Shown: positions 6,540 to 63,904 of the stretch, piece after piece | How positions within the stretch are numbered: position 1 is the first letter of the stretch | Layout: each line of letters opens with the position of its first letter | Source: Bilabrum cf. latius | Taxonomy: Eukaryota | Assembly (NCBI GenBank): GCA_965178125.1 | Contig: OZ237741.1 | Coordinates: 248,001-312,000 of the forward strand | DNA length: 64,000 nucleotides | Direction of reading: 5' to 3' | Made by a program: the position numbers and the translations under genes | Notes under the pieces: model-generated | What the model was told of the DNA's origin: nothing | Database searches by the model: none | What the model saw: the letters and a program-made list of their open reading frames with translations, nothing else

Positions 6540-8318
6540 ATGAGTGCATCATCTGCAGATCCAGGGGCACCGTCACCAGGCAAGGATGCAGCTGGTTCGG
6601 GCGCCCAAAGTGGAACGGCTGCCGCTGCCGAATCCGATCCCGCCCTGGCATTTTTGGACCTGCGGGGTCCCCATGAGCCATTGGATGGTGATCGCGCCAG
6701 AGAATTGGTGAAGTTCTCAGTGGAGCCGCGAAGGGAAGCCGGAACTTTGAAGTTTGTGAAGCGTGTGGCCTTGAGCGGGTGGGGGTTCGACGCGGACGCA
6801 GCCAAAGTTGTGGCGCACGAGCTGCAGTAGCTTCCCGGTCTGGAGCACGTAGAGTTTAGCGATGTCGGGTCTGGTCGGACAGATTCTGACAACATTGCGG
6901 TTTTCACGGTCCTCTCGGAAGCCCTCAGCCCAGCATCCCGCGCGAAGGCCCTGGGGTGCGAGCCTACGGACGAGCGAGCACAGCTCGTGAACATCGACAT
7001 ATCCGACAATGCGGTAGGAATCGGGGCAATCGAGCGGTGGAGGTCCCTGCTGAGCGGAAACCAGCGGCTGCAGCGCATATCGCTGAACAATTGCGGCCTC
7101 AGCGGGGTAGCCATGGAGGCCGTCAACAAAATCCTGCTGCGTCCCGCCGGCGAGACAGTGGCTGACGTGGCCGCCGGCACTGATGGAGACGGCGGTGAAT
7201 TCGCAAAGGCTGCGGACCCCGGGGCAGCGGCAGGGGGTGCGGGGGAGGCTGAGGCCGGGGCCAAGGAGGCGGTGCCAGCCAAGGTCAGGGACATGGGGGG
7301 GGTCGGGGTGCCCACCCGACTGCGGGCGGTGCAGCTGCACAACAACATGGGCGGGAACGACGGCGCCGAGGCGGCCGCTGCTCTGGTCCGGGCTTCTCCC
7401 GAGCTCCGCTTGTTCCGGTTTGCCTCCACGCGGGGCCGGTCGGAGGGCGGTGAGGAGCTGCTGTCCGCCGTGTCAGAGCTGCGGCATCTCGAGCACCTCG
7501 ACGTGTCGGACAACATGTTCAAGTCGGAGAAATGCAGGGAATCGCTGGTGAACATCGTGAAGGGGCCTTCTGCCGACAGCCTGAGGGTCCTAAAGCTGAG
7601 CGACCTGCAGATGGGAGACGCGACCGCCAAGCAGGTGCTGGAGGCTCTGCTGACCGGGGGCGAGGGCGGGGGTGCGTCGTGCCCGCGGCTGGAGGCGTTG
7701 TTCCTCGGTGGCAACGACATCACGGCGGGGGGAGGGGCCAGCAAGCTGCTGGTGCGAGCAGCGCGTGAGCTTCCCTAGCTTAGGCTGCTGTCGGTGCCCA
7801 ACAACGAGCTCGAGTGGGTGGTGGGCGGGCCCCTAGCGGATGCCATCCGGTCCAGGCCTGCGGGCAAGGAGCTAAGGGTGCTTGACGTGTCTGGAAATGG
7901 GCTTGGATCGGCATCCATCACTGAGGTGGCGTGCGCTCTGGCGTCTGGAGCTGCGGGTGCGGAGGCCGTGGCTGCCGCCAAGAAGGAGGAGGAGGCACTG
8001 TGGGCTGCCGGGGAGGCGGAGGGCGAGCCCGAGGGAGGCGAGTACAAGGCTGGGACCAAGAGCGCGCGCGCGATGACTACGAGGGAGAAGGACGAGGCCG
8101 AGCTGGATGTGTCTTCGGTGCGGTTCTCGCTGGACGACAACACGTGCTCTGAGAAGGCGCTCTGCATCGCGAGGAAGGCGATTGAGGGCGTGGCGGGAGG
8201 CAAAGTAGGAACCATCGAGCTGCTGGACCTGTTCGACGACGAGGAAGAGAACGAGGAAGAGCGCGAGAAGATTGCCGATAAGGACCAATGGGACGCGCTC
8301 ATGGTTGAAGACGAGTAA
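6540..8318 (+). CDS. RANGAP1: Ran GTPase-activating protein (LRR) with acidic tail
   Basis: VEFSDVGSGR, IDISDNAVG, LNNCGLS, LHNNMGGNDGA, FRFASTR, LDVSDNMF, LGGNDIT and NNEL follow the RanGAP LRR order. ORFs 6525, 6987 and 7794 join in one frame through TAG 6828 and 7776. Ends in TAA. Confidence 0.85.
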
Positions 8319-8509
8319 GGCAATGGTGCGCGCTTAGGTGCTAGCCAAGGGCTGCGTCGAGCTGCGTCGGGCTGGGTGGTTCCGCTCATCATCAGGTGCG
8401 CGGCAAGACAACGGATCGATGGCCGTGCAAGTCCGTGATAACCCCACGGAAATCCCTTGTTTTGTCTACTTTGATCCTAGTCACATATAAGTACTGATAG
8501 TAGCTACAC

Positions 8510-11230
8510 ATGGACGGCGATAGTGACGCGCTTCGGCTGCAAGCGCTGCGACTCGGCGCAGACTTGGGAGCGATTGCAGCGCGGCGGTTTGCGACAGAAC
8601 AGTCAAGGCGGAGCGTTGGTCTAGTCAGGGCAAACAAAGAACTCAAACAGAATTTGCACGAGGCTGGCGAGGATGGCGCGGGGGTCTATGCATATTTTCA
8701 GTAGAAGCTTGAGGAGTGTTTCCAGCGCATTGCTAGTCTCGAGTAGGAAAATGCTATGGTTCGAGCTGCAGCATCGTAGGCAGAAAAAGAAGCGGGGGAG
8801 CGTGAAACTGAAGCCAGGGCTGAAGCCGAGGCGGCCCTGGCCAAAGCACAGAAGGAATCGGAAGGTCTACAAGACGAGCTTGACAGACTGGTCGAGTTCA
8901 AGACTGCGCGCCAGCACCTGGAAGCCGAAGTCGAGAGGTTATCTACGGCCCTAGCTATGTCGGAGTAGTCAAGAAAAGACGACAACCAGGCAATGGAGCG
9001 AAGGGCAGTGTCTGAGAAAGAACGCCTTCGAGCAGAGACCCTCGACAGGCTTCGGCAGACAAAGGAGGCTATTTTGGCGAGCACAATCGAGTCTCTGGGG
9101 GATACAACTAAGCGAACTCTGGCAGAAAACGAAATGATGACCTCAGAGCTTGCGTTTTAGTCCCAGCAAGCCGAGCTACTCGTTTAGAAGAACGACAAGC
9201 TGGCCGCCGAGTGCAGCGAGCTGTAGCGCACTGTTCGCGAGCTCAGGGAAGAGGCAGCCGAAGGGGCGAGACAGAGGCATGCGCTCCGCAGAGCACTGCG
9301 GTCTTCGGTCACGCAGCTTAAGCAGCTGCGGATGCATCAGGCGAGAAAAGAGGTAGCCGCCAAGCGCGAGGCGAGCGAGCAAGTTGGAGAGGGTGAGCGA
9401 GCACCTCGCCGAGCAAGTGCTGCAAGCGAGGATGGGCGCGAGGCGGAAGGCAAAGGTGAACTAGAGGACACACTGGAGGTAGACATCGAAGCACAGGGCC
9501 GTACATCTGAAGGGGCGGGGGGCGGCAAGGAGCCAGAGACATTGTGCCAGGTTCCGCAACGCAGCGGCGGGATTGCGCGGCGCCCCGTGGCTTCCCCGCT
9601 GACTTCCCGAAGACGACCCGTGCAATCTCGTGGGCTCGCAGCGGGCTCTGGCGCGGCTGCAGGCAGCCCCAAGCCGCCCCCAGGCAGACCGCACATAGGC
9701 GGTGCTGGTGCTGGTGCTGGGGCATCCGGCGGCGCCGCGCTGCGGAACCTCAGCGTGCGCGCTCGCCTGAGGGTGCAAGCCGCCGAGCGGCGTGCAGTGG
9801 AGGCGGAGGCGCAAGCGGAGGAGGCCGTGGCCGCGGCCGACAGGGCAACTCGAGTGGCGGGGGCCACGCAGGGCTTGGTGGGCGAGGTCGTGCTGTCGCT
9901 GGGCACCGCGCTGCAGCGCCTGAAGGAGGGTAAAATCGAAGATCAAGGCAAGGATGGGGACGGCACGCGGGCTCCCGGGGAACAACAGTATAGGAGCGGC
10001 GGGGCTGGCTAGCTGGACGAGGCCCAGTCGCTGTGGATCCGGGGGGACGTGTCCACCGCAGTCGGCATGCTGCTGCGAGTGGCAAGGCAGGCATCTTTGC
10101 GGCTCCGGATGGCCATCGCCAAGGGCGATCTCGTTGTTCCCCCGCGGGAGGGCAGCCGGTCGCCTGAGGGTGGGAGGACGATGCAAGGCGTGGTCAGCGT
10201 GCCTTCGCTCATCACACTGCCAGACCCGCCGTCCGTGCTGGGCGGTCCAAGCGTGACGGACTCGATCGAGCCTGGAAGCGAAGGGGTGAACCAGACCCAG
10301 AACCAGAACCATGCTGGGTTCGCGACGGGAAGCGTGCCCCATGGCGCCCTCCAATCTCGCGAGCTGGAAGGGGCCAGCGTGCCTGATCTGGGCGTGCCCG
10401 GCGATGGCCTGGAGGGCGACCTGGAGGGCGGCGGTTCCGCATACTTGCGCGGCGCCGGTTCACCCCTGCAGGAGCCTTCGACGGCCACCAGTCCCTACCG
10501 CTCCCAGCTGTCCCTTGGGGCAGCGGCGGCGCCGGCGCCGGCGGCGGGGAGCACCGGGGCTGTAGCGTTGCTGTCTGGCGGGGCCAAGGGCTCCATGCAA
10601 GGCGCCGCGCAATCCAAGCAGCATGTTCCGCATAGGCAGTCTGAGGTTGCCATGGCAAAGGGCATCATCAGTGCCCATGGACATGGACATGGGTAGGGAG
10701 CTGGTGCGGGAGCGGGAGCTGGTGCGAGTGCAGGTGGGCTGGGTCCGCAGGGCAGCCTCAGCACCATCTTGCAGGCGCCAGGGGGGGCAGGTGCAGTCGG
10801 AATGTCTAGGTCTAGTAGGGGCAGGGGCAAGACAGGCAGAGTGGATGGGGAAGGGAGGTCTACTGGAACTCGAAGGGGTGTACATGGGGCGGCCAGCGGG
10901 CAGGCGTGGGATGGGGAACGTGGCGACGGAGGGCTAGCCGTCGGTGGCCAACAACTGGGTGGGATGGGGTCGCGCGGCGCCGGTTCTGCAGGCAGGAGGT
11001 CGGGGGCTTCCGCCGCTTCCAGCAGAGGAAGAGGGAGTGGGCTGGCGTCTGCGGGGCGGGAGTCCCTACGCGCGGGCGGTCGGTCGGCCGGTGCCTCTGC
11101 GGCGACTGGCAGTGGCATTGCAGGCCCTGGGGGAAGCAATGGCAGGGGAAGCGGGGCTAGCGGTAATCGAAGCGCATTTGGCCGTTCCTCTGGGGGTTCG
11201 GCGGCTGCGTCTCGAAGGGGAAGTGGGTAA
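8510..11230 (+). CDS. Coiled-coil protein, CFAP157-like N-terminal half, with a long Gly/Ser/Ala-rich tail
   Basis: One frame from ATG 8510 to TAA 11228-11230, with about 9 in-frame TAG and no TAA/TGA. The segment LGDTTKRTLAENEMMTSELAF*SQQAELL resembles CFAP157 (recalled, not searched). Confidence 0.65.
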
Positions 11231-11495
11231 GGTAAGGCCGGTCGGTGCCGGGGCAGGGGATGTTTCGGGTGGAAAACGAGGGGCTCAGATCCAGGGGGCA
11301 GGGCAGCCCGAGGGCTTGAGCGGAAGGGCAGAACGGTTTGTGCTGTTGTATGTTGTGCATATTGGGGTTCCATAGCGTTCCATCGCGATACGTGCAGCGT
11401 TCGTCACAAGTTGAGCCCAGCACGAGAACGCGGAGTATCCTTGGTCCGACGAAACGAGCCTGTCACAGATTTGCAAAGGCCTCGTGTTGCCAGTC

Positions 11496-12705
11496 ATGAT
11501 GCGGCGTTAGGCTGTCGGATTAAATAATGTACTGCGCAAGTCGTTCCATAGGATGCAATCGCGGTCCATCACGGTGCTGCGATCCGTAGAGGAAATGAGA
11601 TAGTATACACGGGCATAGGCCACCGGTGAAAAGCCTCGAATAGGGTTTGTACCAACGATGGGCGCGCTTCACGAGGGGCATATATCACTTATCAATGCAG
11701 TGAGTTCATGCATTTGTTGGGTTGGCCGTCATTCGCTGCGCACTCCTACAAGATGCACAGACAGACAGTTGCTTGTGTTGTTTCGATCAATCTCACCGCA
11801 GTCGAATAGAGAGTGCGCCTCGACCGTGTCAAGCGTGTTCGTTAATCCTGCTTAGTTTGCTCCTGGTGAAGACTTTGACGAATATCCTCGGCAGCTGGAG
11901 CGGGACGTTGAGCTGCTTCGGTAAGACGTCTCGAACCGCTGCCATCTTGCTTCCGAGGCGTGCGGCTTCACGCGTAGTAGACTTCCGCTCCACAAGCCTT
12001 TGCAGAGAGGCAGGCGCTAGCGCGGTGTTCGCCCCACCGGCATCGGAGATGTACCCCACGCACCCGCCAGCCCGAACCTACGTGGATCCCGCCGAGGCGG
12101 ACGAGGGCGCGGAGGGCCGCCGCCGGCCTGGCTTCTTTCGAGGCGTCGCGACGGTCGTCACAAAACTATTCAACGCCGTTCAGCCTGACCGCGCGTACTT
12201 TGGCCAGAAGGACGGGTACCAGTGCATCGTGGTGAAGTAGCTCTGCAGGGACCTGCTCCTGCCAGTGGATGTGCGGGTGCAGCCCACGGTACGGGAGGCA
12301 GACGGCCTGGCCATGTCGTCGAGAAACGCATACCTGAACAATGACCAGAGACTCGCCGCGCCTGCGCTGTACAAGGGTTTGCAACGCGTGAAGAGAGAGC
12401 TGGAGCAGGAGCTCGGTGAGGCGAGCACCGAGCACAGGAGCACTTGCTCGGTCGCGATAGGCAGCGAGCGGGGGGCCGCTCTGCTGGAATCGTTCCGGCA
12501 CGAAATCGAATCGGTAGGGGAGTTTGGAGAGATCGAATACCTCGACTGGGCCTGTGCTCTCACCGGCCGGCCAATCACAAGGCTTGGAGACTCGCTCGGC
12601 TCTGGAGGAGCAGTCCTGCTTAGCGCTGCGGTGCGCATGGGCAGCACTCGGCTCATCGACAACATAGTGGTGTTTGGGCAGCCAGAGGATCTCGGTGAGG
12701 GCTAA
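11496..12705 (+). CDS. panC: Pantoate--beta-alanine ligase (pantothenate synthetase)
   Basis: IGFVPTMGALHEGH, SVFVNPA*FAPGEDFDEYPR, EMYP, RPGFFRGVATVVTKLFN, AYFGQKD, READGLAMSSRNAYL, TRLIDN. Introns 11700-11801 and 11921-12005. TAGs at 11508, 11601, 11616, 11853 and 12238. Ends in TAA. An alternative start is ATG 11553. Confidence 0.93.
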
Positions 12706-12766
12706 AGTGGAAAGTATATCTGCGTGTTGAACAGCCATTGCTAGTGTTGTACCTGTAGACAGTGCC

Positions 12767-15700
12767 ATGCATGCTGTGGTCTTGCTTGACGGCCGACTCG
12801 GAATCTGCCACACACAAGCCAGAAGTCCGTTCAGGTTTCGGGACAAGACAGAAAAGAATTCCGATCCCGAGATGATTCAGAGCAGATCTTAGGCTTTTTG
12901 TTTTGATGCGAGTAGGACACACGATGCAAAATAGAGCACGCCGGGAACGAAGCAGGAGCTGCCGAAACTTGCCACCGCGAGCATCGGCGATGCTGTTGAC
13001 ATGAATGCGCTGCCCGGCGTGCAGAAGCTCCGTGCCGCGGCATCGGTTGCACCACAACTCGCCGACAGATCCGTTTCTTCTAACCGGAATGGCGATTTCG
13101 TAAAGTCGTTGCTAGCTTCCCCCACTCGCGTTGCAAGCGTTCAGTTGCAGCTGCACACACCAGGCTCACGAGCTCGTCGGCGACGAACGAAGAAAGCGGA
13201 CAGCGTAACGGAATCCAAGAGAGCGCATGAATCCGATCATTTTGCAAGGGTCCAGGGCACGAGTACAAGGGTGTCTCGGCGCGAGCATGCGTTACAGGCA
13301 GCTCGCCAACGGTACGCTTCCCAGTCGTAGACTGTTCCTGCGACGTCAAGCATTTTTATGCCGAAGGAAAGCCAAGCTGTAACATCTGATCAGTTGACGT
13401 CATCTCTGCACCTCTCAGGGGCGCACTTAGCGCACACTGGAGGTCGCTCGTCCGGGCATGGTCGCACGCCCGCGCACGGCGACAACCTGCCTGATCGGCT
13501 CAGGCTCGGCAGCCAGGTATCTCCCCACCATGAAACAAGCGCGCCTGAGTTGTAGCAACTGGGATATCCAGGAGAAGGGTTTGTAGACGATCAACCTGAT
13601 TCGGCCGAACCGACAGCTGGGGGTGTCTTCCGGTTCGGCGGCGCCGCTGATCACCACCATGCGCTGCACCAGGACAGCGGGATCGGACATGGCTGGCTCG
13701 GCGGCCACATGGCCTCATCTCTCGATTCCCTGCCCAGGTCTATGGTGGGGGGGGATGCGGAACCAACCAGCACTCGCGGCGCCGCGCACATCAAGGCTCC
13801 CACCCCGCTCGGTGCTGCACGGGCCTCGCACACGGCGCCGGGCGGAAGCGCTTTGTTATCCACGGGCTCGGGCACAGGTGCTGCACGGGCCTCGCACACG
13901 GCGCCGGGCGGAAGCGCTTTGTTATCCACGGGCTCGGGCACAGGTGCTGCACGGGCCTCGCACACGGCGCCGGGCGGAAGCGCTTTGTTATCCACGGGCT
14001 CGGGCACAGGTGCTGCACGGGCCTCGCACACGGCGCCGGGCGGAAGCGCTTTGTTATCCACGGGCTCGGGCACAGGCGCGCGCGCAAGTGAAAGCCAGCG
14101 AAGCGCCACCGCGGGGTCAGGCTTTGTGGGTGCTCCAGGCGCCTCGCAATCCGCGGGTGGATCGTAGACTCGGGTTGGTTTCGGATCCATGGCCAACTCC
14201 ACCAGGCCCTCTGCAACGGACCCGCACGGACATCTCCTCGGGCCGTCTGTGCCTCGCTCTGTGTTCTCGTCGCCTTCTTCTTCCACCATTGGTAGGGCGG
14301 TGGGTGTGGTATCCTCTGGTGGAAGCCAAGGGGGTCCCAGCGATCCAATGCACCAGTAGCGCCACCAAAAGCAGCAGCAGCAGCAGCAATAGTAGCAGCA
14401 GCAGCAGCAACAGCTTTTGCCTCCTGGTGCGCTCGCCACACTGCACCGAGCTGTGGATAGCGCCAATTCCGGAAGGGTATTCCTGCCCTCGCAGCCCAGC
14501 AACAGGCGAGCTGGGGATGTGACCGGCCGGGCCTCCGCACATGCAGGCAGCAGCATGCACCCGTCTGCCTCCGATGGCTCACTCGTCTTTGTGCCCTCCA
14601 AGGTGACCGTGGGACTCGGCGGCAAGCACGGCAAGAAACGGCACAGGAGACGAAAGAATGCGGGCTCTCTCTTGGATCAAAATGCCGGCAGCCCGCTGGG
14701 ACGCCGGCGCCACCGTGGAATGGGGGCTGGGTACTCGCAACAGTGCCAGAGCACGCCAGCACTTGCAGCTCAAGCTTCAAACGCAGCAACAGGCCAGCAG
14801 CAGGCCGTACGCTCTGTTGCTGCTGCCAAGTCCAGGAACCAGGGTAAGCTGCATCGTGAGCATGCACCCCCGAACGCCCACGCCAGGACGGCGGATGGCA
14901 GGCGGAGGGTGGACGCAATAGGACTGCATGCGGGGCCCAGCACCAGCCAACAGTAGCTCGCCCAGCTTAAGCAAGCAGTTCCGCTCGGGAGCCCCATGCG
15001 GCTCGGCCGACCCGCGGGTGGGTTTCCTATCACGCCGACCGGTGGTTCACCAGCCGACCCTGTGGTGGCGGTGTCATACGGTAAACTGCACGGCGCTGGT
15101 GGTGGGAGCAGCAGGAAACCTACCAATCGAGCTGCCACACGGACTATCGACACGTCCGACAGAACGAATGACATGACCGCGCAGCAGTCATCAAAGAGTC
15201 CCTTCGGTGCTGGATGGACCGGACTGCGACGGCCCGCACCATCGCGAGGCAGTCCGACTGCAGCCAAGCTGCAATACGTTCCCGCTGATGGGCTCGATGC
15301 CAGCTCTCGCCAAGCCGGAGCGGCACCCTCTTCTGCATCGCAGAGCTCGATTCGTGACGGGCGCTACGGGCCCGTGCCCACGTCTAGGGACGGTGGGGGT
15401 GATGGTTTGCTGCTGCACGAAGCGCAGAGTCGAGGCGGTGTTGGGCACGGCGGGCTCGGGCAGGTGGAGCTACAGGGCAGCCGCAGTGTGATAGAGGGGG
15501 GCGCATAGCAGAATGAGGAAACGTCTGCGGTGGAATACGCAGCAGAGCAATTCGAATCGGCCGAGAGCGTGTTCGATCGAGAGGAGAAGGCAGCGGAGCG
15601 CAGCGGCGTGGAGGGTGGGCAGAGCAAAGACGCAGTGGACCTGCTGCACCCTTCCGGTGCCACAACGGGAAGGAGTGCCAGCAGACACAGCATCAGTGGT

Positions 15701-18700
15701 GGGGGCTCTCGCCGGAGTGCCTTCCGCCCTGGCCCTTCGATCGATAGCACCTCTTCGGTGCTGAGCGGAGACGCGGCAAGCGAAGCAGCCAGTGCTGGTG
15801 GCAGGGGACAGCCGTGGGCAAACGGACTGGGGCATCCCTCAGTCGATAGTCTGCCGGTCGAGAGCCCACAGCCAGGCAAGTACGCAGTGGAGAAAACCGC
15901 TCCGAGCAGAGAGCCAAAGCAGCCGTCAAAGCGGAGATCCAAGCCAAAACCATCCAAGCTGCGCACACCCCATGCTGCGAGCGAGGCCAACGATGTGCCC
16001 GATCCAAAGACGCCGTGGGGAGCCGGCTAGCACGCCACCAGCGCCAAGGTGGTCAAAGGCGGTGGTTTTCAGCTGCAACGAGGCGCATCGAACGGCCAGC
16101 TGGCCGACTAGGCAGGCCTGGTGGTAAAAGGGTCACGGTCGGCTGGCAGCGAACAGTCACCCGGAGTCGAACCGGGGAGTGGTTCCCCCAAAGGCATCAA
16201 CTCATTGGCACAAGGATCTAGAGCAAGCTTCGATTCAATCCCAGTGCCTGCAGAGGACCAAGAGGGTCGAAGTTCTAGCAAACGAGCCGGTATGGAGTCG
16301 ATGCAGACAGCGGGCGGTGGAGCTGCGTCTGGGGTGATCGTCTCAGGGGATCAGCACGATCAAGACAGCAGCAACGCCAATGGTGCATGTTCTGAAGCAG
16401 CGGGAGTGGCGGGACCCAGGGAACGGAATGAGACTCTTCAGCGAGACAGCAACTTGTCCATGGGCCAAGATTCTCTCATCTCCACGAATGGCGGCCAGGA
16501 GAGTCGCATCCACGCAACAGAGTCACTGTCTCCTCGAGCGGTCGGTGCCGCTGCGCTAGTAAACGGGGAAGGGCGAGGCACTGATGAGGAGTCAAGCCTG
16601 TTCGAAGGCAGCCCAGGATAGACCGGAACAGTGCTAGGGCAGGGTGGCAGCAGCACGCCAAAGGGCAGCGTGGCGTTCCTTGACGACGGCTTCGCCAGGG
16701 TGGAACCTTCCTCTCCCGCTGGAGCCTCGATGGCGACCTTTGGGCAGGCAGGTCGCAGGTGGTCCGTCGGAACCATGGGCTCGACGCGGTCGGGAGGCAG
16801 CAAAGAGGGCTTGGCCAGTCCTGCGCGGCAGGGTGCTGGGTTTCCTGGGGAAGAACGTACAGGTGAATCGACTGCCACTGCTGCCAGTGGTGAGCATCGT
16901 GCGGCCGCACAGAAAGTAAACACCGAGTCGGCCTCGAGGCAGAGGCCGAGGTCTCGGTCAGCCGTGAAGCGAGCGAGGGCAGAGGCAACCAGGAGGCAGA
17001 AAGCCGATGTGCCAGTGCCAGCAATGGCGGACAGGAGGATCTTCCGTCCCAGCGGCGGGCTTGGAATCACATTTAAGCGCACGTCAAAGCCTCGTCTATA
17101 GGATGTTAGCTCGGACGCGGGACTGCAGAGCAGCGCTGGCACCGGCTTGGGATCTGGGTAGCCCGTGCTGCTTTCGCCACAGGAAGCCGCTCGGCGCTCC
17201 ATGATTCGCACGCGGCAGGAGCTGCGTGGAGGCGGGGCAGCACTCCGGATGCTCACCCGCGGCACCCAGCAAGGAGGCGCTGGATCGAATGCCACCCATG
17301 CGCCGATGAGCAGCCCCATGCGAGTGCCAGGGAAGGGCGACCTGCCGTCTCCACGGACTGCTGGGGAGTCGCTCAGGCGAGTGGCCGCCGGGATGGGCGC
17401 TCCATCGATCGCCGCCATGATCCTCACCGAGGATAGCGGCGATGCAGCTCACGCGGGTAGTGGCGCCCGCTCGAGGCCTGCGACTATCCTTTCTGAGGAA
17501 GACGCAGCCCGCGCGCGAGGAGCTGCCAACGGGCCCGTCACGCAGAGCTCGATGAAGAGGCGACCCCAACCTCTCCCGGCGATAGGCGCAGCGAAGCATA
17601 AACCGGTCCACGCAGCGACTGGAGGTCATAAAACGGCCGCATCGCACCAGGACATCAGCAGCTCCAGTCCCGCCGCCACAAGCGGGCGAGGGTCTGCCTC
17701 TTCAGCCCAATCCAAGCCATGCAAGCAGTCTGTCGGGGACAGCCGAGGAGCTTATCATGAAAACCACGACGAAGGGCGCGACCGGTCGCAGTCTCCCGTT
17801 CGTCTCACTGTAGCGCGCATGTCGCCGACACCGTCTGAGGTTGACGAGGACGGCCAGCCCTCGCCCACTGCATCCGCCATGTCAGCGAGTCCATCGGCGT
17901 GGAGGCGCAGCACGCGGCCGGGCTCTGCCAGTGGATAGACTCAGCCTGCTTCCCTTGTGGAAGGCGGGTCATCGTCAGCCTCCATCGGGGCTCACGTGAC
18001 CGACAGGAGCAAGGACAAAAAAGCTGGCATTGCGTCAGATTTGGCCGATGGAAATGGCTCAACACGGGCGGTGGCAAAGCAGAGCAGCGGCTGCATCTAG
18101 GCTGTCTCACCCCGCAAAGGAAACGAAAGACTTCCTGCCAACCAGGCGGCGGTGGGCGATCCCACCATTCGAGCGGCAGTGGAACGACCTAGGCACCAGA
18201 TCAAGCACCTGCCAAACGTGCTGCTGGGAGCCAGCAGCCCCAGCCAGCACGAGGTCAGACAAGGGGGCCCGCTGTATAGCAAGAGGCATGATAGGGGCAC
18301 GCATGCGGCAGTACGCCCTATGCAGCCTCTCGGAGGCGGCTGGCCGGGGCGGATGGTGGCAGACAAGGGCATGCCACAGGGGCATCAGCACGACTAGACT
18401 GCACACATCGCGGCAAGTGGGCGCACGGCCTCCAATGCTAGAAAACCGAAGTCGATAGCCAAGCTCAAGACAGATGCAGAGACAAGACACAATGACGGCG
18501 CACCTGCAGTGACCGTCAGCTTGCTGTCCAACGCGAGCATGTCAATACCATCGATGCAGCCGACTGGCCCTCTCGGCGCGCCTGCTCGAGCCACGATGGC
18601 ACCCGACGCCATCAAGCACCAAGGGAGATTGCCTCTAAAGCAGAGCAGCTCTGCATAGAGAGCATCGCCCGGCATGCCTGGCACGGAGCAAGCAGCCTCA

Positions 18701-53789: not shown

Positions 53790-55067
53790 TTATCTGTGGT
53801 GGAAAACGACAACGTCTCCGTCTTGCATGACGTACCCCGCACCCTCGCTGCGCATGAGGCCCTTCTTCTTCGCGGCGGCTTCCGAGCCGCACTCCAGCAG
53901 CACGTCCCAAGCGATCACGTCGGCACGGATGAAGCCATCCGAGATGTCGCTGTGGATGGCCGCCGCCGCGTCCTTTGCCGTTGTTCCCTGTGCGATTGGC
54001 CACGCCCTAGATTCCTGCGGCCCCTGCGTGTAGAAGTTAATCGTCCCCAGCAGCCCCTGCACCTTGCGGATCACCTCGGGCAGGCCCTCTGCCTCGGCAT
54101 CCAGCCCCAGCTCGGCCATGTACTCTCGGCGAGCCTCCACCCCCTCCTCCCCCGCCCCCAGCTGGCCCAGCTCCGCTTCGAGCTTGGCGCACACCATCAG
54201 CACGTCAGCGAGGGGCGCTTGTGTTCCCTCGCTGGCATCGATCCCCTGCGCCTGCTCCTTTTCACGGAGCAGTGCCACAGACTGCTCCATCTCGTCCTAG
54301 ATGGCGGCCTTTGCCATCGCCGTGAGCTCGTTGCCACCAGAGGCAAGCCCATCCTCGTCCACATTCAGAACGTAGAGCACGGGCTTTTGGGTGATCAGGC
54401 CTAGCGTAGGCCAGGCGGATTCGTGGCCCTCGGGCAGCCTGCCTGCCAGTTCGAGGTGCCGCGCGGGTGCCCCCTCCTCTAGCAGGGGCTTGACGGCTTC
54501 CAGGCATGCAAGCACGCTGGCTTGCTCCGCTTTCTTCTTGCCTTTCTTGCTCATCGATTCCAAGCGTTTCTCCACGGACTGCAAGTCGGCCAGCACCAGC
54601 TCCGAATTGATCACTTGGATGTCAGCCGCCGGACTTAATCCGTCCTCAGCATCCACATGAATAACATCTTGGTCCTCGAAGCACCGAACCAAGTGCAAGA
54701 TAACACTACAACCCCGAACATCAGCGAGAAACTGGTTTCCTAATCCTTGCCCGGAGGCCGCCCCCTTAATAAGACCGGCAATATCTGTAATGTCAACGCT
54801 AGTAGGGACGGTCCTTTCGCTGTTGGCCATCTTGCCGAGGGCGATCAATCTAGAGTCCAAGATGGGAACGCTAGCCGTTTGCGCTTTGATCGTGCAAAAC
54901 GGGTAGTTTTCGCTTGCAGCGGCTTCGCTCTGCGTGCAAGCGTTAAACAGCATGCTCTTGCCAATATTCGGCAATCCAACGATTCCCGAGGACGCAAAGC
55001 GCCGAGACTTCCACGCGACCGAAATCAACTTAGCATTACATCTGCGAATGACTCGGGATATCAACAT
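53790..55067 (-). CDS. ychF: YchF/OLA1 Obg-like ATPase, bacterial/organellar type with presequence
   Basis: GIVGLPNIGKS, ENYPFCTI, DIAGLIKGA..G.GLGNQFL, HLVRCFED, NVDE, TGS domain (RAW, AAIHSDI..GFIRA, EGAGYVMQDGDVV.F). The two ORFs join through TAG 54297. Ends in TAA. Confidence 0.93.
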
Positions 55068-55170
55068 GTATCGCTCTGTGCTATGCAAATAAGCATTCAA
55101 ATGCAGCTGTTGCCTTTGAGCCCCAACGAACCTTCGGGCCAAAACGGTTCGTTTTGCCCTGCGATCCTGA

Positions 55171-56955
55171 TCACTGCCCAGCGACTCGCAGCATATCTGG
55201 AATGCTGGTAATCTTCACCCTCGGTCTGCCTTGCGGCTCCCCCGCGGCAGCCTCGGCAGCATCAATCCGCCCCCAGCCGTTCCAGTCCACAAACCCGCTG
55301 CCCTGCGAATCGCTCGTCACCATGCCACCCTACAGCCTCTGCCTCAGCGCCCCCAGCCGAGCACCCTTCTCCTCGTTGTTCCCCAGCCGCCCCTCCGACC
55401 AATCCTCCAGCACCGCTCCCGCCGTTTGCTTTGCGTCCGGAATGTTTGTCCCGATGATACCCGTGGGGCCTCGCTTGAGCCAGCCAGCGCAGTACAGGCC
55501 CCGCTCTGCAGAGGGCGATTCGGGCTCCTGGCCGTCCCCTCCCTGTTCCCCAGCCGCCGCTCCATCAGCCGCCACGGCCCGGGTCACCCGTCCGCCTGCC
55601 TGCCGCACCACCCCCCTCCACTCGTCCCAGCACGCCAGATCCAGGCCGGGCACGGGCTCGGACCTGTACCCGATCGACGTCAGCGCCATCCCGCAGGGAA
55701 CAACTTCCTCCTCGCCGGTTGCAACCGCCTTCTGTGCCCCCGCGACACCCTCAAGACCCGTGATGGTGCACCGCACCCCGGAAAGCCCCCCCCCGCTGCC
55801 GCCCCCCACAAACTCAACGGGGGACAGGAAGAATCGCAGCCACACGCTCCTGGGGATGCCGGCCTGCTCCGCTGCATCCACGCTGGGAAAGCCCCCTTCT
55901 CCCTTGGAGACCTTCTCCAACAGCGCGTCCATCCTCTTGCGCGCCCGCTGCTGCTTGATCTCCTCCATGCTCGACTCGGTACGTCCCTTGGCGAGGTCCT
56001 CGGGGCGCACCACCGCCGCGGCTCCCTCCAGCCTGGTCAGCTCCCTGAGCTCCTTCATCGTCATCGCGGCCTGTACGTGTCCGCGACGCCCCAGGACCTG
56101 CACTCTCCGAACCTTCGATTCGGCGAGAACCTCCAGGGCGTGGTCGGCGATGTCGGTCTTGCGCAGCTCGTCGAGCGATTTGACGAGCACTCTGGCGCAG
56201 TCCACCGCGACGTTTCCCTGCCCCACAATGGCGACGCTCTCTGCCTCTGATCGGCCCAACATCTCGGCCATGCGGGCGGTCTCTTCGGGTGAGCTGAAAT
56301 CGGGATGACCGTTGTACCAATTCACGAACCGGCGCGCTGACAGCACCTCAGGCAGATCTTCGCCAGCTGCTCCCAAGCTGCGGTCGGACTGGGCGCCGTA
56401 CGCGAGCACCACAGCGTCGTAGGAGTCTCGCAATTCATCCAAATTTACATCTTTGCCAAGCTCTACGCCGCCAAAGAACCGGAATTGCGAGGAAGGCGCA
56501 TCAGCCACCACCGCGGAGAAGTCGTTTGCTACGGATTTCACTTCAGGGTGATCGGGTGCGACCCCGCTACGCACCAGACCTGTGATCAAAATAAAATAGC
56601 GGTGGAAAGAAGTGGACTCTTTGCCACAGCAAGCATGGGCATCCAGTCTAAGAGCTGCCACAGCATCAACTTGGCATCACTCACCAAAAGGCGTAGGCAA
56701 TCGATCGATAACATCAACTTCGGCTCCATCGCACTATGATAGCAAGTACTTGGCGGTATAGAATCCACTCGGGCCACTGCCAACCACGCACACCTTTGGA
56801 GGCGATGCTGCCGCTGTCGACATCATCCGGCCGTCTTTGCGCAGGTCGAAACATCTTGTAGCTGTTGCAAGTCTAAACGAGGTGTAAGATCGAGCTACGG
56901 ATTGCGATACCACAGATACAAGCCTCCTAGATCGCATTGCATGCATACTATTCAT
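55171..56955 (-). CDS. FDXR: Mitochondrial NADPH:adrenodoxin (ferredoxin) reductase
   Basis: VVGSGPSGFYTA, LPTPFGLVRSGVAPDHPEVK, WYNGHP, GQGNVAVDCAR, GRRG, SIGY, GWLKRGPTGII. The C-terminal VDWNGWGRIDAAE..GRPRVK lies after TAG 55330. Intron 56684-56580, second TAG at 56734. Ends in TGA. Confidence 0.93.
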
Positions 56956-57072
56956 TGCGTAATATGTGGATTGCCCGGCCGGGACACGTCTCGAAGGGGT
57001 AAGGTGCAGTTATTGAGTGGTTGAATGGTCGCACGATGACCACGTTTTTGGCCAAATCTCGGTAAATTTGCA
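56956..57072. promoter_or_regulatory. Putative bidirectional promoter between FDXR and ferredoxin
   Basis: 117 bp separate the divergent start codons. Inferred from geometry only. Confidence 0.5.
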
Positions 57073-57788
57073 ATGCAAGCTGTATTAAGGGGCGTTCGAG
57101 CTACGAGTCGAAGCATCACAAGAACATCTACGCCAAAATTTGCATCATCAGCCCGTCTTGTACGCGCATTCAGCGCATCTGGTTAGACAACATGCGGATT
57201 GAGTTTTGTAGCTGGAATTGGCACACCAATGCAACGATATTACAGTGTACGTCGTGGTGTATTGCTTATTGATAATATGCTGGATCGGCTTGCAAGGCAA
57301 CTGCATGCTGATGTTTCACGGCTGGCTGCGGCCAAGTTACACAACCCTAGAGGGGCGTCTTGGCGTGCTCCCAGCCCTATAGTTTGCCCGTACTCTCCAC
57401 TTGCTTGCCGGAAAAGTAATTCTTTATTTGATCTTTCTCAGGTGTCAAGCGATCGGAGCGGGTAGCAATCACTTTCTTGGACAAGGATGGCAAGGAGACG
57501 GAGGTGAAGGCGGCCGTGGGTGACAGCCTCTTGACCGTCGCGCAGGAATATGACTTGGACGTAGAGGGTGCCTGCGGTGGAGAGTGCGCGTGCAGTACCT
57601 GCCACGTAATCATGACGCAGGACGTCTTCGAGTCCCTGCCGGAGGTGACGGAGGAGGAGGAGGACATGCTGGACCTTGCCGCTGGCCTCACCGACACGAG
57701 CAGGCTGGGCTGCCAGGTGTTCGTGACCCAGGAAATGGAGGGAATGCGAGTCCAGCTGCCCACCGAAGTGTCCAACATGATGGACTGA
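57073..57788 (+). CDS. Mitochondrial [2Fe-2S] ferredoxin (adrenodoxin/Yah1 type)
   Basis: Arg/Ser-rich presequence exon 57073-57181, intron 57182-57441, then EGACGGECACSTCHV, EEDMLDLA and SRLGCQ. Ends in TGA. Confidence 0.93.
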
Positions 57789-58243
57789 ATCTAGCCTCCC
57801 CAGGTCTGTGCGTCCGTGCTAGTGGACGGGATGAGCATCATGCCTCTAGGTGGGCGGTCGAAGATATGGACGGCTCTTATGATATTTGAATGTATGCAAG
57901 GCACATTAAATGCTTCTTCAGATGCACACTGTTCTGGGGGTCCATGCATTGAACTCGCCGCGTCGCGATCGCGCCATCATGTTGGCGTGCGGATTCAACC
58001 ACTCAGCCTGCAGCATTCCAGGCCTACATGGTATCGGCGTATGCGCCGTCAAATCAATTTTGTTTATCGCAGCTTATCAGCACACAGCACGACAAGCAGG
58101 TAAGCACTGAGCATTCAATCCCCCAACTGCAGGTGCAGCGCACTGTAATGCACCTGGTTGCTTGCCGACTCTGGCTGATCCTCTCCGAGTCTGGCGTACA
58201 CTGCTCAGTCAAATCAGCATGGTCGCTCGATTCGAACTTTGAT

Positions 58244-60721
58244 ATGGAGGCTGCAAGAATCGTGCCGGACGGGGCATTCCACGGAAGGCAGCAGGGTTCG
58301 AGGCGACCGCAGCTAGAGCAACAGTCACAGGCGTCCAATTAGGCATGCTTGTCACCGCAACTGCAAGCTGGACTATTTGTGTTCAATATTATGGTCGGCT
58401 CTGGTGCGTTAGCGCTGCCAAAGATATTTGGTGAAGCCGGCCTGGCACTTTCAACAGTGTTTCTATGCTTGGTGGCTGCTCTCTCTATTCACACGCAACA
58501 TCTTCTCCTGGAAGCGCAAGGTGTTGCGGCAGTTCTGGAAGGGCTTCGTCAGCAGGCCGGACAGAGTTCAGTGGGGGGTGACGTCCTAAATGCGAGCGCG
58601 CTGCAGCGATACCAGCGGCCATGGTCGTTCCCGGCGCAGATAGCTAGCATATGCCGTCTTTTGCTACCGCCATGGGGTGTCTGGATTTGGTATACCATTA
58701 TCATTTTATATTTGGTTCCAGATCTGGCTGTGTACTCTGTGTTCGTGCCTGCGACGGTGGCGCACGTGTTTCCCGGCGTGGAGCTGAACGGTTTCATGGG
58801 CAGGGTTGCCTCCAGTCTCGGAGCTCCGAAGAGCAATGGTACCACGGTGGATCATAACGGAGTATAGCCGCATGATGGTGCGGTTTTTGTGTCGGAGCAA
58901 GCGGTGTACGGGACCACGCTCCTGCTGCTCGCACTCATTGCAACCCCGCTGACTTTCTACTCCTTGAAGAAAACGACGGCACTGCAGGTTGGAACCCTGA
59001 TGACTAGGATTGCCGTTTTTGGTGCAATGACAGCCTGTGCGCTGTACTTTGCGATCACGCGGGATTTCGGCCGGCACGGTGAGTCCGAGTCGGCCGAGGC
59101 GCTCGACGCAGACGATGCGGATGAGGCCGAGCACGCAGGTGTTACAGCAGGAGCTGTCGACACCCACGTCATTGGGGGTACAGATCCCCTCAGGGTGTAT
59201 CAGATGTTTGGTCGAGAACTGCGCGATACTGTCTCGAACAGCTCCTCAATTGCGCCGAACTCTAGCGCCAGCATCGTGCCCGATCCCGATCCCGCCCCCG
59301 GCAACAGGTTCCACCCCAGCCACCTAAACCCAGATGGTGACCCGGCCGAGCCGCGAGTACGGCTTTGGAGAATGGCTGGCTTGCCTCTGCTCTTTGGAGG
59401 GGCTGTGTATGCCATGATTGCACAGCAGTACGTGCCTAGCCTGTTTGCTGGCCTGGGAGCTGCCGTGCCCAAGGCGGGCGAGCACGGAGCACCCGCTCAG
59501 GGCACATCGGTCGCAACAACGCAGAGGTAGGCTCCCGATGGGAAGGATGCAGCAGAACCAGAGAACAAGCCAGACCGCTGGTACGCCCGAGGCATCGTGA
59601 TCAAGGTGATCGTGTGCGTGCTGGCACTCTACCTCGTGGTCTGCTGGTCGGCTGTGTGGGCGTACCATGGTCTGGTGCAGCCCGAGGAGGGTTGTGACGC
59701 GCACACCACGCACGCGTGCGGGCTGCAAGACCTGTACATGTTTGGTTTCGGTTACGTGCGCCCGTGGGAGCTGTCTCGGTTCATCCTGCTGGCCCCTCTG
59801 CTCTCGATGCTCTCCTCGTTTCCACTTATTGCCATCACGCTGAGGGACTCTCTGATCCTGCTATACCTTCAAACCTGTGGGAGGAGTATTGCTAGCAACG
59901 CCAGTGAGGGCATGGTGCTATCCATCCGAAACGCTGGTGGAGGCTCTGGCACCGCAAGTTAGCTGGGTTCGGGGAACCCCCCAGGCTTAGATGAGGAGAA
60001 CGCTGGCAGTACCACCGGCCCGAATCCGTCTGCTGGTATTGAGATGCAGCGAATAGACGGCGGGTAGGACTCTTTCGGTGATGCGAGTAGAGTTGCCGCA
60101 TAGGGAGTCGCGTTTGGCGGAGCTGGGGCCGCGGCCATCGCCGAAGATGAAGACCAGAACGGAGAGCACGATCGTGACCCGCTCGTGCAAGCCGATAGCG
60201 GTGGTACCGGCTTGTCCCGCGCGGTAGGGGTGGCCAAACTCGCGGCCCAGTTGGCCGACGAAGCGGTTTCCGAGCTAGTCACGGCCACCGCCCCCCAAGC
60301 CTCCGCGGCCTCCATGCCGTTCAGCGTGAGGTGCGTGGCAGCGCTGGTTGCAACCGTGCCTGGGTACTTGGTCGCAAGTTGGACTCGGAATATTGACGGG
60401 CTGGTGGAGGTGACGGGCGCGTTCGGGGGCGCTGCGATCATGTTCGTTGTGCCTGCCTTGCTGGCAGCTAGGGCAAGGGCCGTGAGGGCGCGGCTGCTGA
60501 GCGCATGTGATGAGGCCGAGAAGAAGGGTGGGAGCCAAGGGCAAGGATACGGGGCGTTGTTGACGCGGGAAGCGGCTGTGCGGGTGAGGCTGGCGGTGCA
60601 TCACGTGGCGGATGCGACCAGGCCGCCGGAGTGGCAGCGATCCCTGGCTGGAGTCGTGATACCGCTCTTGTTCGCGGCGGTGTGCCTCGCGGTGAATTTG
60701 TGGACTTTGATCGCGGACTAA
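58244..60721 (+). CDS. Amino acid transporter, AAAP/SLC38 family (TMEM104-like)
   Basis: LFVFNIMVGSGALALP, DLAVYSVFVP, LFGGAVYAMIAQQYVPSL, SSFPLIAITLRD, VTGAFGG..IMFVVPA and multiple hydrophobic segments. Four ORFs join through TAG. Ends in TAA. Confidence 0.8.
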
Positions 60722-60858: not shown

Positions 60859-62213
60859 ATGGCCGGCGTCCCTTTTACTGATGATGACTTTGAAGAGGAT
60901 CGAGTCCCTCAAGGCTCCCGCAGGCTTTCCGATGGCTCGCTCCTAAACTTCCGAGACATCAAAATGTAGAAGGAGATCGGACGTGGAGCCTTCAGCCATG
61001 TCTACATGGGAACTTGGCGGGGTCTCAAGGTTGCTGTCAAGAAAATGAGGCTTCCTAACAGAAAACTAGGGAAACGATCTGCCGAAGAGGATGAAGAAGA
61101 GCCAGATACGTCAAAGTACTTGGTAACCGAATTGGCAGTCCTGAAGGCTGTGCAGCACGAGCATCTCATCAAGTATCACGGTGCCTGCATTCACAAAGGA
61201 CATATTTACGTTGTGACGGAGTGAGTTGCCTGGGCTAAGTGTTGTGCTGCTTTGGCGTATTCCATCGCTGCCGTGCGAGACTCTGCAAGCTTCAACGCCG
61301 AGTCCCGCGTGCCGTTGCTTGCTCTCACGATGACAATATCTTGAATAGTTGGTCTTCATATCGCAGGTTGCTCGACGGAGGCGATTTGCAGCGCGTGCTG
61401 AACAAGGCACCCGCATCGCTGCCTTGGCTGCGCCGCGTGCAGCTTGCAAGGGACGTGGCAGAGGGAATAGCTTATCTTCATACCATGGAAATCATTCATA
61501 GAGATATTAAGACGGAGAACGTGTTATTAGATGACAAGTGGCGACCCGTTGTGGGGGACTTTGGCTTCGCAAGAAAAGCCGAGCAGGCGAAGGCGATGAC
61601 CATATGCGGCACGCCCGCTTTCATGGCCCCTGAAGCAATCTGGGGCGAGGAATATTCGCAGCTGGCGGACGTGTTCAGCTTTGGCATGATCCTTGCGCAC
61701 CTGATCACCCGGAAAGAGCCCGGCGAGAAGGGTTTCTTCGTCAGGGAGCCCCGCACCAAGTTTGAGCTCAACATCGACGAGATCGACGCCGCTGCCGACG
61801 AGGGCTGCCCCGAGTCCCTCATGGACCTGTGCAAGCAGTGCCTGGCAAAAGAACCCGACGACAGGCTGGAGAGCTCCCTGGTGCACGAGTGGCTTTCGGA
61901 GCTTCACGCCGAGCTGCTCGACGAGGCGGGCGAGGGCGCGGAGGACGCAGAGGACATGAAGGTCTCTCCCAGCAGCATCATCAGCGGGGAGGAGGCTCTC
62001 GGGGCAGCAGGTGATAAGGCGGGTGGGGGTGCGGCAGCAGAGCTCTCCCCGGAAGACAAAGAGAAGCGAGCACGTGCCCTGGCGGAAGCAGCGGCAGCAG
62101 AGGCGGCGATGGCCATGGCGGATGCTGGCGAGGCGCCCTTTGGCGCTGCGCACGCTTAGGTGGCATCGAGCGGCGACTTGGGCTCGCCTGTGGTGGGAGG
62201 TGAGGGTACATGA
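60859..62213 (+). CDS. TKL-group protein kinase (LIMK/TESK-like)
   Basis: IKM*KEIGRGAFSHVY, VAVK, HRDIKTEN, DFGFAR, ICGTPAFMAPE, DVFSFG. Intron 61221-61366. TAGs at 60967 and 62157. TGA at 62211-62213. Confidence 0.9.
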
Positions 62214-62401
62214 TGGGAGGTAGAGGGAGGCCGACGCGTTACCTGTAAAGGTGCCTGTCGAGCCCTCGGGGTGACGGATCCGCTCCATCATGCGCTGCAC
62301 TGCCAGCTTCCGGTTCTGGCAGCGCGGATGCTGGGTGCGTGCATTATTTAGCGATCGATATGGGAACGATAGAAATAGCAGGCTTTACCATCACTGAGGA
62401 G

Positions 62402-63904
62402 ATGGTTTTCTACTAGATCTTAATCGCTGCGTTTATACTTGTCGCCACTGCCGTGGTTTTCAAGATTTAGCAGCACAATGCGCTGCCGCAAGATGCCCGA
62501 GCCGTCATGCAGCAGAACGAGGACCACGAGTAGAATGACGGTGTTGAAAACGCGCGTGGCGATCAAGACGACTGGAATGCCGAGCATGACAGCGACGAAG
62601 ACGAAAGTGGCGAGGAGGACGATGGAGACGATGGAGACGATCGCGACAACGCTGCTGCACTGATGAACATGGGTCCCAGGGCCCGTGCAGCTGCATTGAG
62701 AAGAAGGGAGCGGGCCCATCGGCGAGAGATGGTTCGCGACATGAGGCGCGCCATGGTAGAACGCAACAACGAGGCCGAGCGAATCCGGCTGCAGCGCATG
62801 GAGGAGCGGGACGAAGAGCAGGAGGAGCAAGTTCGAGAGTAGCGAATCCAAGAGCGCGCCACAAGAGATGCGTAGGAACGCCGACTGTGGAGTGCTTTGG
62901 AGGCACTGGGCCTGGAGCGCGCTGATTGCCTCACGTCGGTGGCAGCAGATGGCACCCTGCTGCACAGAGCCCCACCCCAGCAAAACGGCACCTAGCGATC
63001 GCACCAGCCGTCTGGTACTATTAGACCCCCGGGTCTACCCGGGGGTGGTTCCTATTCAGGGGTGAATCCACAGAGCCTCAGGCTGGGGGCAGTCGCCCTG
63101 GCGTCGCTTCGCAGCCGGCTGCAATCGACCAGTGTCGCCGGCAGCAGCAGCAGCAGCAGCAGCAGTCCTACTGGCAGTGGCAGTTCGAGTCTGGCTGGAA
63201 ATGGCAAAGCGCTGATTGACATCCCGGAGATAGCTGGCTGCTTGCTGCACGGCCACGGTGCCCCCGACAGCCTAGCTGCTGCCCTGTCAATCTCTTCAGG
63301 TCAGGTAAAAGCCGGGGTGGAAGTGGCAGCATCAGTCTCTAGTATTGGGCATGCAGGAGCTAGAGGGCTTGCAGCTGTCATTCGGAGCATGGCTGAGGGC
63401 GCGGAAGCGTTGATACATTCTGCAACAGACTAGGCTATCTCTGCCACAGGGTCGAGAGACAGACCAGAAAGTGCTGTTGAGCCAAGTCAAGCCGATGCCG
63501 CTACGAATCACTTCTCATCGCCAGCAGGCGCCTCCACTCGAAGTGCGGCTGGCACTGATGCTGGCACTTTCACCGGCTCACGGTCGATAGAAGCACAAAC
63601 ATTTCAAAGCCTTGGCTCCGAATGGCACGCCGTGCTTGCTGACGCACCAGTTGGTAGGCTAGTCGGCTGCACGCGAGCGGCGCTTCAGGCATGGCTTGCA
63701 ATGGAGCACCCCGGAAATGGCAGCTCAAGAGGCGATGCAACCAATGAGCTCTCAGTCAGTGCTGGGGCTGCAGGGAAGAAAGGTAAAGGGATTGTGATTC
63801 CTAGGTCTGGGATCGATGTTGACGCGGTGCATGAGTGGATGCTGCGCGATGCAACACCGGCAGTCGGGACCGATGCATCGGCAGTCGACCGACCACGTGA
63901 TTAA
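62402..63904 (+). CDS. Hypothetical N-terminally membrane-anchored protein with acidic and coiled-coil segments (500 aa)
   Basis: MVFY*ILIAAFILVATAVVFKI*QH, then an Asp/Glu-rich stretch and an Arg/Glu helix. The frame is open apart from TAG up to TAA 63902-63904. Confidence 0.6.

Follow-up and report, generated by a model that had tools for sequence, protein, structure and literature searches.

The stretch analysed here (the window) comprises 64,000 nucleotides (nt) of contig OZ237741.1, assembly GCA_965178125.1, deposited under the name Bilabrum cf. latius (Eukaryota); all coordinates count from its first letter. Its GC content lies between 56 and 70% in 4-kb bins, and the genome as a whole is GC-rich, at about 62%. 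When TAG is read as a sense codon, a dense row of eukaryotic genes with few introns becomes visible across the window. The subject of this report is the genetic code of these genes, in which UAG, to judge from the sequence, encodes glutamine, while UAA and UGA act as the terminators. The following genes and open reading frames (ORFs) were delimited, with TAG counts referring to in-frame codons.

3-6032, minus strand: XRN1-type 5'-3' exoribonuclease (Pfam XRN_N 5e-90, XRN_M 7e-83) with 4 TAG; the 3' end lies beyond the window.
6525-8318, plus strand: leucine-rich repeat (LRR) ORF, RanGAP-like, with 2 TAG; stop TAA at 8316-8318.
8510-11230, plus strand: CFAP157-like flagellar coiled-coil ORF with 9 TAG; stop TAA at 11228-11230.
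11476-12759, plus strand: mRNA of PanC (pantothenate synthetase), recognized by Pfam (2e-56) and by spliced RNA-like contigs; stop TAA at 12703-12705.
12767-19609, plus strand: low-complexity ORF of 2,280 codons with 21 TAG; stop TGA.
19732-21700, minus strand: NAE1, the regulatory subunit of the NEDD8-activating enzyme E1; stop TGA at 19783-19785, the 5' end at ~21700 being approximate.
21594-23049, plus strand: SpoU-type methyltransferase with an intron at 22326-22449 (124 nt); stop TGA at 23047-23049; position 21594 is the raw ORF start, not a mapped start codon.
23231-24316, plus strand: hydrolase of the HAD superfamily (yeast YKR070W-like) with 1 TAG; stop TAA at 24314-24316.
24853-26523, minus strand: proline dehydrogenase (ProDH) with an EF-hand insert and 1 TAG; stop TGA.
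28131-31115, minus strand: ODAD1-like flagellar coiled-coil ORF with 8 TAG, ending in a tandem TGA TGA.
31438-32514, minus strand: Fringe/DUF604-like glycosyltransferase with 3 TAG; stop TGA.
32841-36398, minus strand: ORF of 1,185 codons with 12 TAG; stop TGA.
36681-37925, plus strand: CDC50/LEM3 gene of at least two exons; stop TGA at 37923-37925.
38927-39634, plus strand: scramblase ORF with 0 TAG; stop TGA.
39947-53521, plus strand: ORF of 4,524 codons with 35 TAG, 0 TAA and 0 TGA in frame; stop TAA at 53519-53521.
53784-55142, minus strand: YchF ATPase of bacterial type, probably organellar, with 1 TAG; stop TAA at 53790-53792.
55171-57009, minus strand: adrenodoxin-reductase-like gene with an N-terminal exon near 56680-57009 and 1 TAG upstream of more coding sequence; stop TGA.
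57432-57788, plus strand: exon of an adrenodoxin-like 2Fe-2S ferredoxin, named from reading the translation only; stop TGA at 57786-57788.
58028-60721, plus strand: amino-acid transporter-like ORF with 6 TAG; stop TAA.
61239-62213, plus strand: last exon of a protein kinase with 1 TAG, located 17 codons ahead of the stop TGA.
62339-63904, plus strand: ORF of 521 codons with 7 TAG; stop TAA at 63902-63904.

At contig joints from three public RNA-like runs, GT..AG introns of 85-124 nt are removed in PanC, NAE1 and the SpoU gene. These introns are thus spliceosomal, and the DNA is nuclear. The PanC exons extend to 11699, from 11802 to 11919 and from 12005 onward, separated by GT..AG introns of 102 and 85 nt, and the introns of NAE1 are located at 21207-21326 and 21514-21608. 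A giant-virus origin is ruled out by the spliceosomal introns and the eukaryotic housekeeping genes. The tRNA scan found no tRNA genes in the 64-kb window, the Rfam scan returned zero matches for it, and eRF1 is absent from its gene content.

The use of TAG within the coding frames is extensive. In 20 long ORFs delimited with TAG as sense, 121 in-frame TAG codons were counted per 18,216 codons. After trimming to the frames supported by RNA or homology, 18 ORFs with 17,398 codons contain 114 TAG in frame, versus 0 TAA and 0 TGA. The in-frame TAG rate of 6.6 per 1000 codons is equal to the off-frame rate, while TAA and TGA are excluded from the frame: in the two off-frames of the same 18 ORFs, the rates per 1000 are 6.6 for TAG, 2.6 for TAA and 15.5 for TGA. 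The effect on ORF length is specific to this codon. Under the standard code, the longest ORF measures 851 amino acids (aa); it reaches 4,528 aa with TAA and TGA as the stops, compared to 851 aa with TAG and TGA and 930 aa with TAA and TAG. Across these four stop sets, long frames thus open only when TAG is freed.

TAG remains a minor codon, accounting for ~14% of the glutamine codons in the 20 long ORFs (121 TAG vs. 591 CAG and 181 CAA). Judged by eye, TAG appears scarcer in the genes most biased towards GC at third codon positions (GC3), as does CAA. For example, proline dehydrogenase has 1 TAG, 24 CAG and 2 CAA at a GC3 of 0.87, and the last ORF of the window has 7, 10 and 9, respectively, at a GC3 of 0.57.

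There is practically no room for an unchanged code in which the TAG codons stem from pseudogenes, from assembly error or from U-to-C editing of TAG to CAG. Besides the count of 114 in-frame TAG against no TAA or TGA, the region is complete in five public runs (X1-X5), and about three quarters of the sampled words are present in three RNA-like runs (X6-X8), all of them dated 2025. Pseudogenes are ruled out, as they would gather TAA and TGA too, and none are in frame. The spliced contigs of X6, X7 and X8 span the TAG codons of PanC and NAE1 with zero differing letters; the mRNA therefore carries UAG, and RNA editing is ruled out. This comparison covered the window up to 26300, with 14359-14422 skipped as a repeat on account of the poly-Q tract at 14372-14413. 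Recoding of the selenocysteine or pyrrolysine type is ruled out as well, since TAG is far too frequent and stands at glutamine positions. Two further PanC TAGs (11601-11603 and 11616-11618) precede the conserved N-terminal strand by 8-13 codons, and the sole in-frame ATG past both is the methionine of the conserved PTMG motif; hence, translation must cross both of them.

The residue inserted at TAG was read along four independent lines, all in favour of glutamine. With the N-terminal 300 residues of the CFAP157-like protein as query, HMMER retrieved 381 relatives, the best 150 of which were re-aligned to the query. At codon 217 (TAG 9158-9160, plus strand), the column holds Q in 138/144 aligned homologues. 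The log-odds summed over seven TAG columns of this protein amount to 7.8 for Q, 4.7 for K, 1.0 for R and -2.5 for E. In PanC, the exon-2 TAG (11853-11855) aligns with the Q of the FVNPxQF motif in 5/5 PDB PanC structures shown. Two near-identical relatives carry a glutamine at such positions: a 469-aa protein of another assembly (P0121), 97% identical to NAE1, has Q at TAG 20656-20658, and a 64-aa fragment (P0363), which matches the CFAP157-like protein at every residue, has Q at codon 217; its end falls just short of the next TAG, codon 226. Finally, a poly-Q run of 14 codons (14372-14413, plus strand) reads CAG x5, CAA, TAG, TAG, CAG x4, CAA, CAG, with the TAG TAG pair at 14390-14395. Taken from the sequence, UAG is thus read as glutamine.

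That UAG encodes another residue, like the Glu, Lys or Leu known from variant codes elsewhere, is hardly credible, even if some columns point that way. The two TAG columns of NAE1 (21340-21342 and 20656-20658, both exonic) are ambiguous, with K 43/Q 23/R 17 in one and E 101/A 7/Q 5 in the other among 120 rows including P0121, and PDB alignments at these codons gave K and E. The PDB alignment gave R, R, R and G at the exon-3 TAG of PanC and N at the TAG of the HAD hydrolase, and several coiled-coil TAG columns are rich in K, R or E. Against this stand the invariant column and the motif glutamine described above, the Q in both near-identical relatives, the TAG pair within the poly-Q run, and the summed log-odds, which place Q above K by 3.1 and above E by 10.3 natural-log units.

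Another fragment, of 63 aa (P0369), is 78% identical to the N-terminus of the CFAP157-like protein (8519-8698) and ends one residue before the Gln-64/TAG-65 pair. This more distant relative possibly shares the code, if the fragment ends at a stop-type codon; it may also stop at the end of a contig.

Termination was followed in 20 complete gene models, of which 8 end with TAA, 12 with TGA and none with TAG. The TAA ends are located at 8316, 11228, 12703, 24314, 53519, 53790 (minus strand), 60719 and 63902. A preliminary description of the window had proposed that UAA and UAG are decoupled, naming eight TAA ends and 13 TGA ends among 21 complete models. All eight TAA ends were located, and the recount gives 12 TGA ends and 20 models. 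The raw ORF ends of the SpoU and CDC50 genes are not true terminators; their real stops are TGA 23047, after the intron, and TGA 37923, in a later exon.

To compare the sequence on both sides of each codon, a coding score was used (the codon log-odds, in-frame vs. off-frame, averaged over 40 codons on each side and trained on the same ORFs). Across TAG (n = 109), the mean is 0.174 before and 0.174 after, with a drop in 48/109 cases. Across TAA (n = 8), it falls from 0.200 to -0.119, with a drop in 8/8 cases, and across TGA (n = 9) from 0.285 to -0.062, with a drop in 9/9. The RanGAP-like ORF, for example, scores 0.507 before its TAA and -0.124 after it. The downstream scores after TAG and after TAA differ at p = 9e-8 (Mann-Whitney).

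The ends of the RNA-like contigs agree with these positions. Contigs of X6 and X7, from two studies, end at 12755-12759, about 50 nt past the PanC TAA, and one of X7 only ends at 24338, 22 nt past the HAD TAA; contigs of X6 and X7 also end at 19732-19737, 46-51 nt past the NAE1 TGA. To reach an in-frame TGA, translation would have to continue for 27 codons past the PanC TAA and for 247 codons past the HAD TAA. The NAE1 C-terminus is that of its family: 112/119 homologues align within 15 residues of it, and 112/112 of these end at most 5 residues away (median 0). The preliminary description had also placed the TAA of PanC, HAD and YchF at the expected C-termini of their families. For PanC and HAD, the contig ends are supportive, but the YchF case does not stand: its end reads TAA-CAC-TGA (53784-53792, minus strand), with a back-up TGA one codon past the TAA, and 120/120 homologues end at most 5 residues from either stop. 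YchF is thus no independent test of termination at TAA. A back-up stop is also present in the ODAD1-like gene, in the form of the tandem TGA TGA at 28128-28133 (minus strand).

These data bear on two other codes. In the first, a UAR = Gln code, UAA would be avoided but still have a sense meaning where it does occur, and the two codons would not truly be decoupled. The ORFs were cut at TAA, so its absence from the frame is partly circular, mainly for the shorter ORFs; TAA is scarce anyway at 62% GC (2.6 per 1000 off-frame); and the YchF TAA is indistinguishable from read-through. On the other hand, if TAA was used like CAA, ~33 in-frame codons would be expected (114/574 x 168), and 0 are seen in 17,398 codons. 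Together with the drop in coding score after 8/8 TAA, the contigs ending 22 to 50 nt past the HAD and PanC TAA, ahead of further in-frame stops, and the 4,524-codon ORF with 35 TAG and 0 TAA, this makes a sense role of UAA very improbable.

In the second, UAG is context-dependent: it encodes glutamine inside genes and also terminates near some 3' ends, as in Condylostoma, karyorelicts and Blastocrithidia. The terminator sample counts only 20 stops, and, by its position, only the kinase TAG, 17 codons before TGA, is a candidate terminator in the window; its coding score is 0.294 before and 0.024 after. But none of the 20 models ends at TAG, and in 15/16 ORFs more than 50 codons separate the last TAG from the stop. 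Past the TAG at codon 444 of the adrenodoxin-reductase-like gene, the score remains at a coding level (0.169), and the mean coding score is equal on both sides of 109 TAG. Moreover, the frames are free of TAA and TGA, which sets this code apart from the known ambiguous ones. Context dependence is therefore improbable, although slightly less so than a sense role of UAA. Within the window, the decoupling of UAG and UAA is supported: UAG is sense, and UAA and UGA are terminators.

Two genes were informative on the lineage. Among named organisms, the best NAE1 matches come from the stramenopiles Scytosiphon, Cafeteria and Tribonema and from a bicosoecid (36-39% identity), while fungi and ciliates reach 28-32%. 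For XRN1, the closest named organism is Cafeteria roenbergensis (53%), with most other named XRN1-type matches at 38-45%. The NAE1 tree (37 rows, IQ-TREE quick) joins the window and Cafeteria as sisters with a support of 92 in the SH-like approximate likelihood ratio test (SH-aLRT), within a clade of 20 rows (82) in which 9 rows are unnamed and all named members are stramenopiles. In the XRN1 tree (34 rows), the window is sister (SH-aLRT 97) to a clade holding Cafeteria, within a clade of 23 rows (100), 12 of them unnamed; the named rows are stramenopiles except for one with a dinoflagellate label, an apparent contamination. This XRN1 record (P0257), labelled Durusdinium, sits tightly inside a labyrinthulomycete clade and looks like a contaminant. 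The rows of both trees were hand-picked from the named matches and the top unnamed ones, and the XRN1 tree omits plant matches of the XRN2-4 type. An aphelid or ciliate origin is ruled out, as the fungal and ciliate homologues are farther off in the NAE1 and XRN1 trees.

YchF did not help: a homologue search gave nothing above 48% identity, and a search of metagenome contigs with YchF gave only matches of at most 46% identity, with no DNA of a relative. As a bacterial, probably organellar type with only distant relatives, it is uninformative on the lineage. Moderate evidence from the two trees points to a bicosoecid-related stramenopile. Database entries for Cafeteria proteins are full-length under the standard code; hence, the code change would post-date the split from Cafeteria.

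Taken together, the window very probably represents nuclear DNA of a GC-rich flagellate, most likely a Cafeteria-related stramenopile (Bicosoecida), with a cytoplasmic code like NCBI table 15, in which UAG is a minor glutamine codon and UAA and UGA are the sole terminators. A number of points, in addition to the deviating columns and the kinase TAG described above, weigh against this reading. The RNA nature of X6-X8 is a guess, and no run listed for the region is on record as RNA, although spliced joints are present, and the contig ends (Logan) are a weak hint of mRNA ends and no proof. The search of representative proteins was run with TAG as Q, the column count being taken from an alignment with X at TAG. 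The TAGs of YchF and proline dehydrogenase sit in parts without PDB alignment, so that no residue is readable there. The training bias of the coding score is small at 17,000 codons, yet real. The terminators come from one 64-kb window with 20 stops, and rare TAG stops or sense TAA are possible elsewhere. The placement, finally, comes from two single-gene trees with SH-aLRT support only.

Several other features of the window were observed. The genes are tightly packed and appear to have very short 3' untranslated regions (UTRs) of 22-51 nt, with the exception of proline dehydrogenase, for which the 3' UTR measures ~425 nt. The RNA-like contigs of PanC stop ~10 nt ahead of the first ATG of the next long ORF, and the convergent HAD and proline dehydrogenase transcripts end ~90 nt apart. 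In proline dehydrogenase, a pair of EF-hands is placed N-terminal of the catalytic domain (weak Pfam matches, below the gathering score). The adrenodoxin-reductase-like and ferredoxin genes are arranged head to head, separated by ~420 nt; their products would act together, and the two genes would share a divergent promoter region. A long minus-strand ORF at 57269-57949 is the shadow of the ferredoxin gene. Inside the 2,280-codon ORF, at ~13830-14090, a 22-residue unit is present in four tandem copies. In the CFAP157-like gene, a GC-rich low-complexity spot (10520-10548) draws chimeric joints and loose contig ends, which are most likely assembly artefacts.

Regarding the decoding mechanism, UAG would be read by a cognate tRNA-Gln with the anticodon CUA, which would be unable to pair with UAA; this tRNA would probably have arisen by mutation of a tRNA-Gln(CUG) copy. 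A UUA anticodon would wobble-read both UAA and UAG; hence, a cognate tRNA for UAG only must have CUA. In parallel, eRF1 would have lost the efficient recognition of a third-position G after UA, with UAA and UGA kept. This idea is not new: Panek et al. 2017 reached the same conclusion for Iotanema spirale and the rhizarian exLh, predicted a tRNA-Gln(CUA), and reported the eRF1 changes T32G in the GTS motif (Iotanema) and L69A (rhizarian) (PMC5304391). McGowan et al. 2024 extend the decoupling of UAG and UAA with the same mechanistic argument (PMC11687900).

The preliminary description presented the dedicated CUA tRNA as a strict requirement, which seems too strong a claim, since a near-cognate route may be possible. 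There, UAG would be read by tRNA-Gln(CUG), or by a structurally altered copy of it, along with a weakened eRF1. The window contains no tRNA gene, so the CUA tRNA is unproven; a tRNA-Trp(CCA) with a 4-bp anticodon stem reads UGA in some trypanosomatids and ciliates, according to PMC13092985; and the tRNAs responsible for most variant nuclear codes are described as unknown in PMC5304391. But UAG makes up ~14% of the glutamine codons and is present in nearly every gene, which calls for efficient decoding, and tRNA(CUA) genes are reported in two ciliate genomes with UAG = Leu (PMC11687900). Near-cognate decoding is, thus, the less attractive option and rather unlikely, but far from negligible, and the cognate tRNA-Gln(CUA) is preferred.

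A code of the Iotanema/table-15 type is itself already known, as are the phenomenon and its implications. In Iotanema spirale (Fornicata), UAG is likewise Gln, and UAA and UGA are the stops; in contrast, this is an unrelated anaerobic metamonad known from a transcriptome only, in which UAA is the main stop, whereas here TGA is commoner (12 vs. 8) and the GC content is 62% (PMC5304391). The table-15 ciliates Hartmannula sinica, Trochilia petrani and Protocruzia tuzeti resemble the present case in that only UAG is Gln, with wide sense use and no sign of a dual meaning; they differ in that the GC content of the class is 27-54% and UAA ends 87-98% of the genes, as opposed to a GC-rich background with TGA as the majority stop (PMC11687900). 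UAG and UAA also differ in exLh and the TARA phyllopharyngeans (UAG = Leu), in Scotinosphaera (UAG = Ser) and in Oligohymenophorea sp. PL0344 (UAA = Lys, UAG = Glu), but the amino acid is not Gln (PMC11687900). Altogether, fewer than ten lineages with differing UAG and UAA are listed in McGowan et al. 2024 (PMC11687900).

The UAR = Gln codes (table 6: many ciliates, hexamitin diplomonads, oxymonads, some Ulvophyceae and Amoeboaphelidium) share UAG = Gln, but there UAA is Gln as well, whereas here 0 TAA are in frame and 8 genes end with TAA. Condylostoma, the karyorelicts and Blastocrithidia also read a standard stop as an amino acid; they still terminate at that very codon and have all three stops in frame, whereas here no TAG terminator was found among 20 models and no TAA or TGA in frame. 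Giant viruses with TAG = Gln give the codon the same meaning, but they are viral, and the window belongs to a cellular nuclear genome with spliceosomal introns. The giant-virus catalogue GVMAGs V2 tested code 15 among the alternative codes and raises unrecognised host associations (PMC13524828).

The possible novelty may, therefore, lie in the lineage, a probable stramenopile, along with the GC-rich background and a TGA that is commoner than TAA. Full-text literature searches returned no report of UAG = Gln in stramenopiles or bicosoecids; the coverage of subscription journals is thin, and a recent report is possible. It is conceivable, although the odds are somewhat against it, that this represents the first change of the nuclear code in stramenopiles. 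UAG = Gln would then have arisen independently in a GC-rich, Cafeteria-related clade with UGA as the main stop; the 97%-identical relative, at the least, would have it too, the 78%-identical one possibly, and the clade could host giant viruses with TAG = Gln. An origin in a GC-rich genome with UGA as the main terminator would fit poorly with AT-driven codon capture. Cafeteria itself is host to a giant virus; a link of the TAG = Gln giant viruses to this clade as their host is speculation.

Codes that split UAG from UAA are rare, and they are natural experiments on how eRF1 separates the two codons. A further independent origin would add a data point with an unusual background: a lineage for which the papers searched describe no code change, a GC-rich genome, tightly packed genes and UGA as the main stop. 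Gene prediction under the standard code will break up the proteins of this genome; in the public protein collection, the genes of relatives are present as fragments only. If the organism is cultured, its eRF1 and tRNA set would allow the proposed eRF1 determinants to be tested afresh, and a natural eRF1 variant that spares UAG would be of interest for the engineering of amber suppression.

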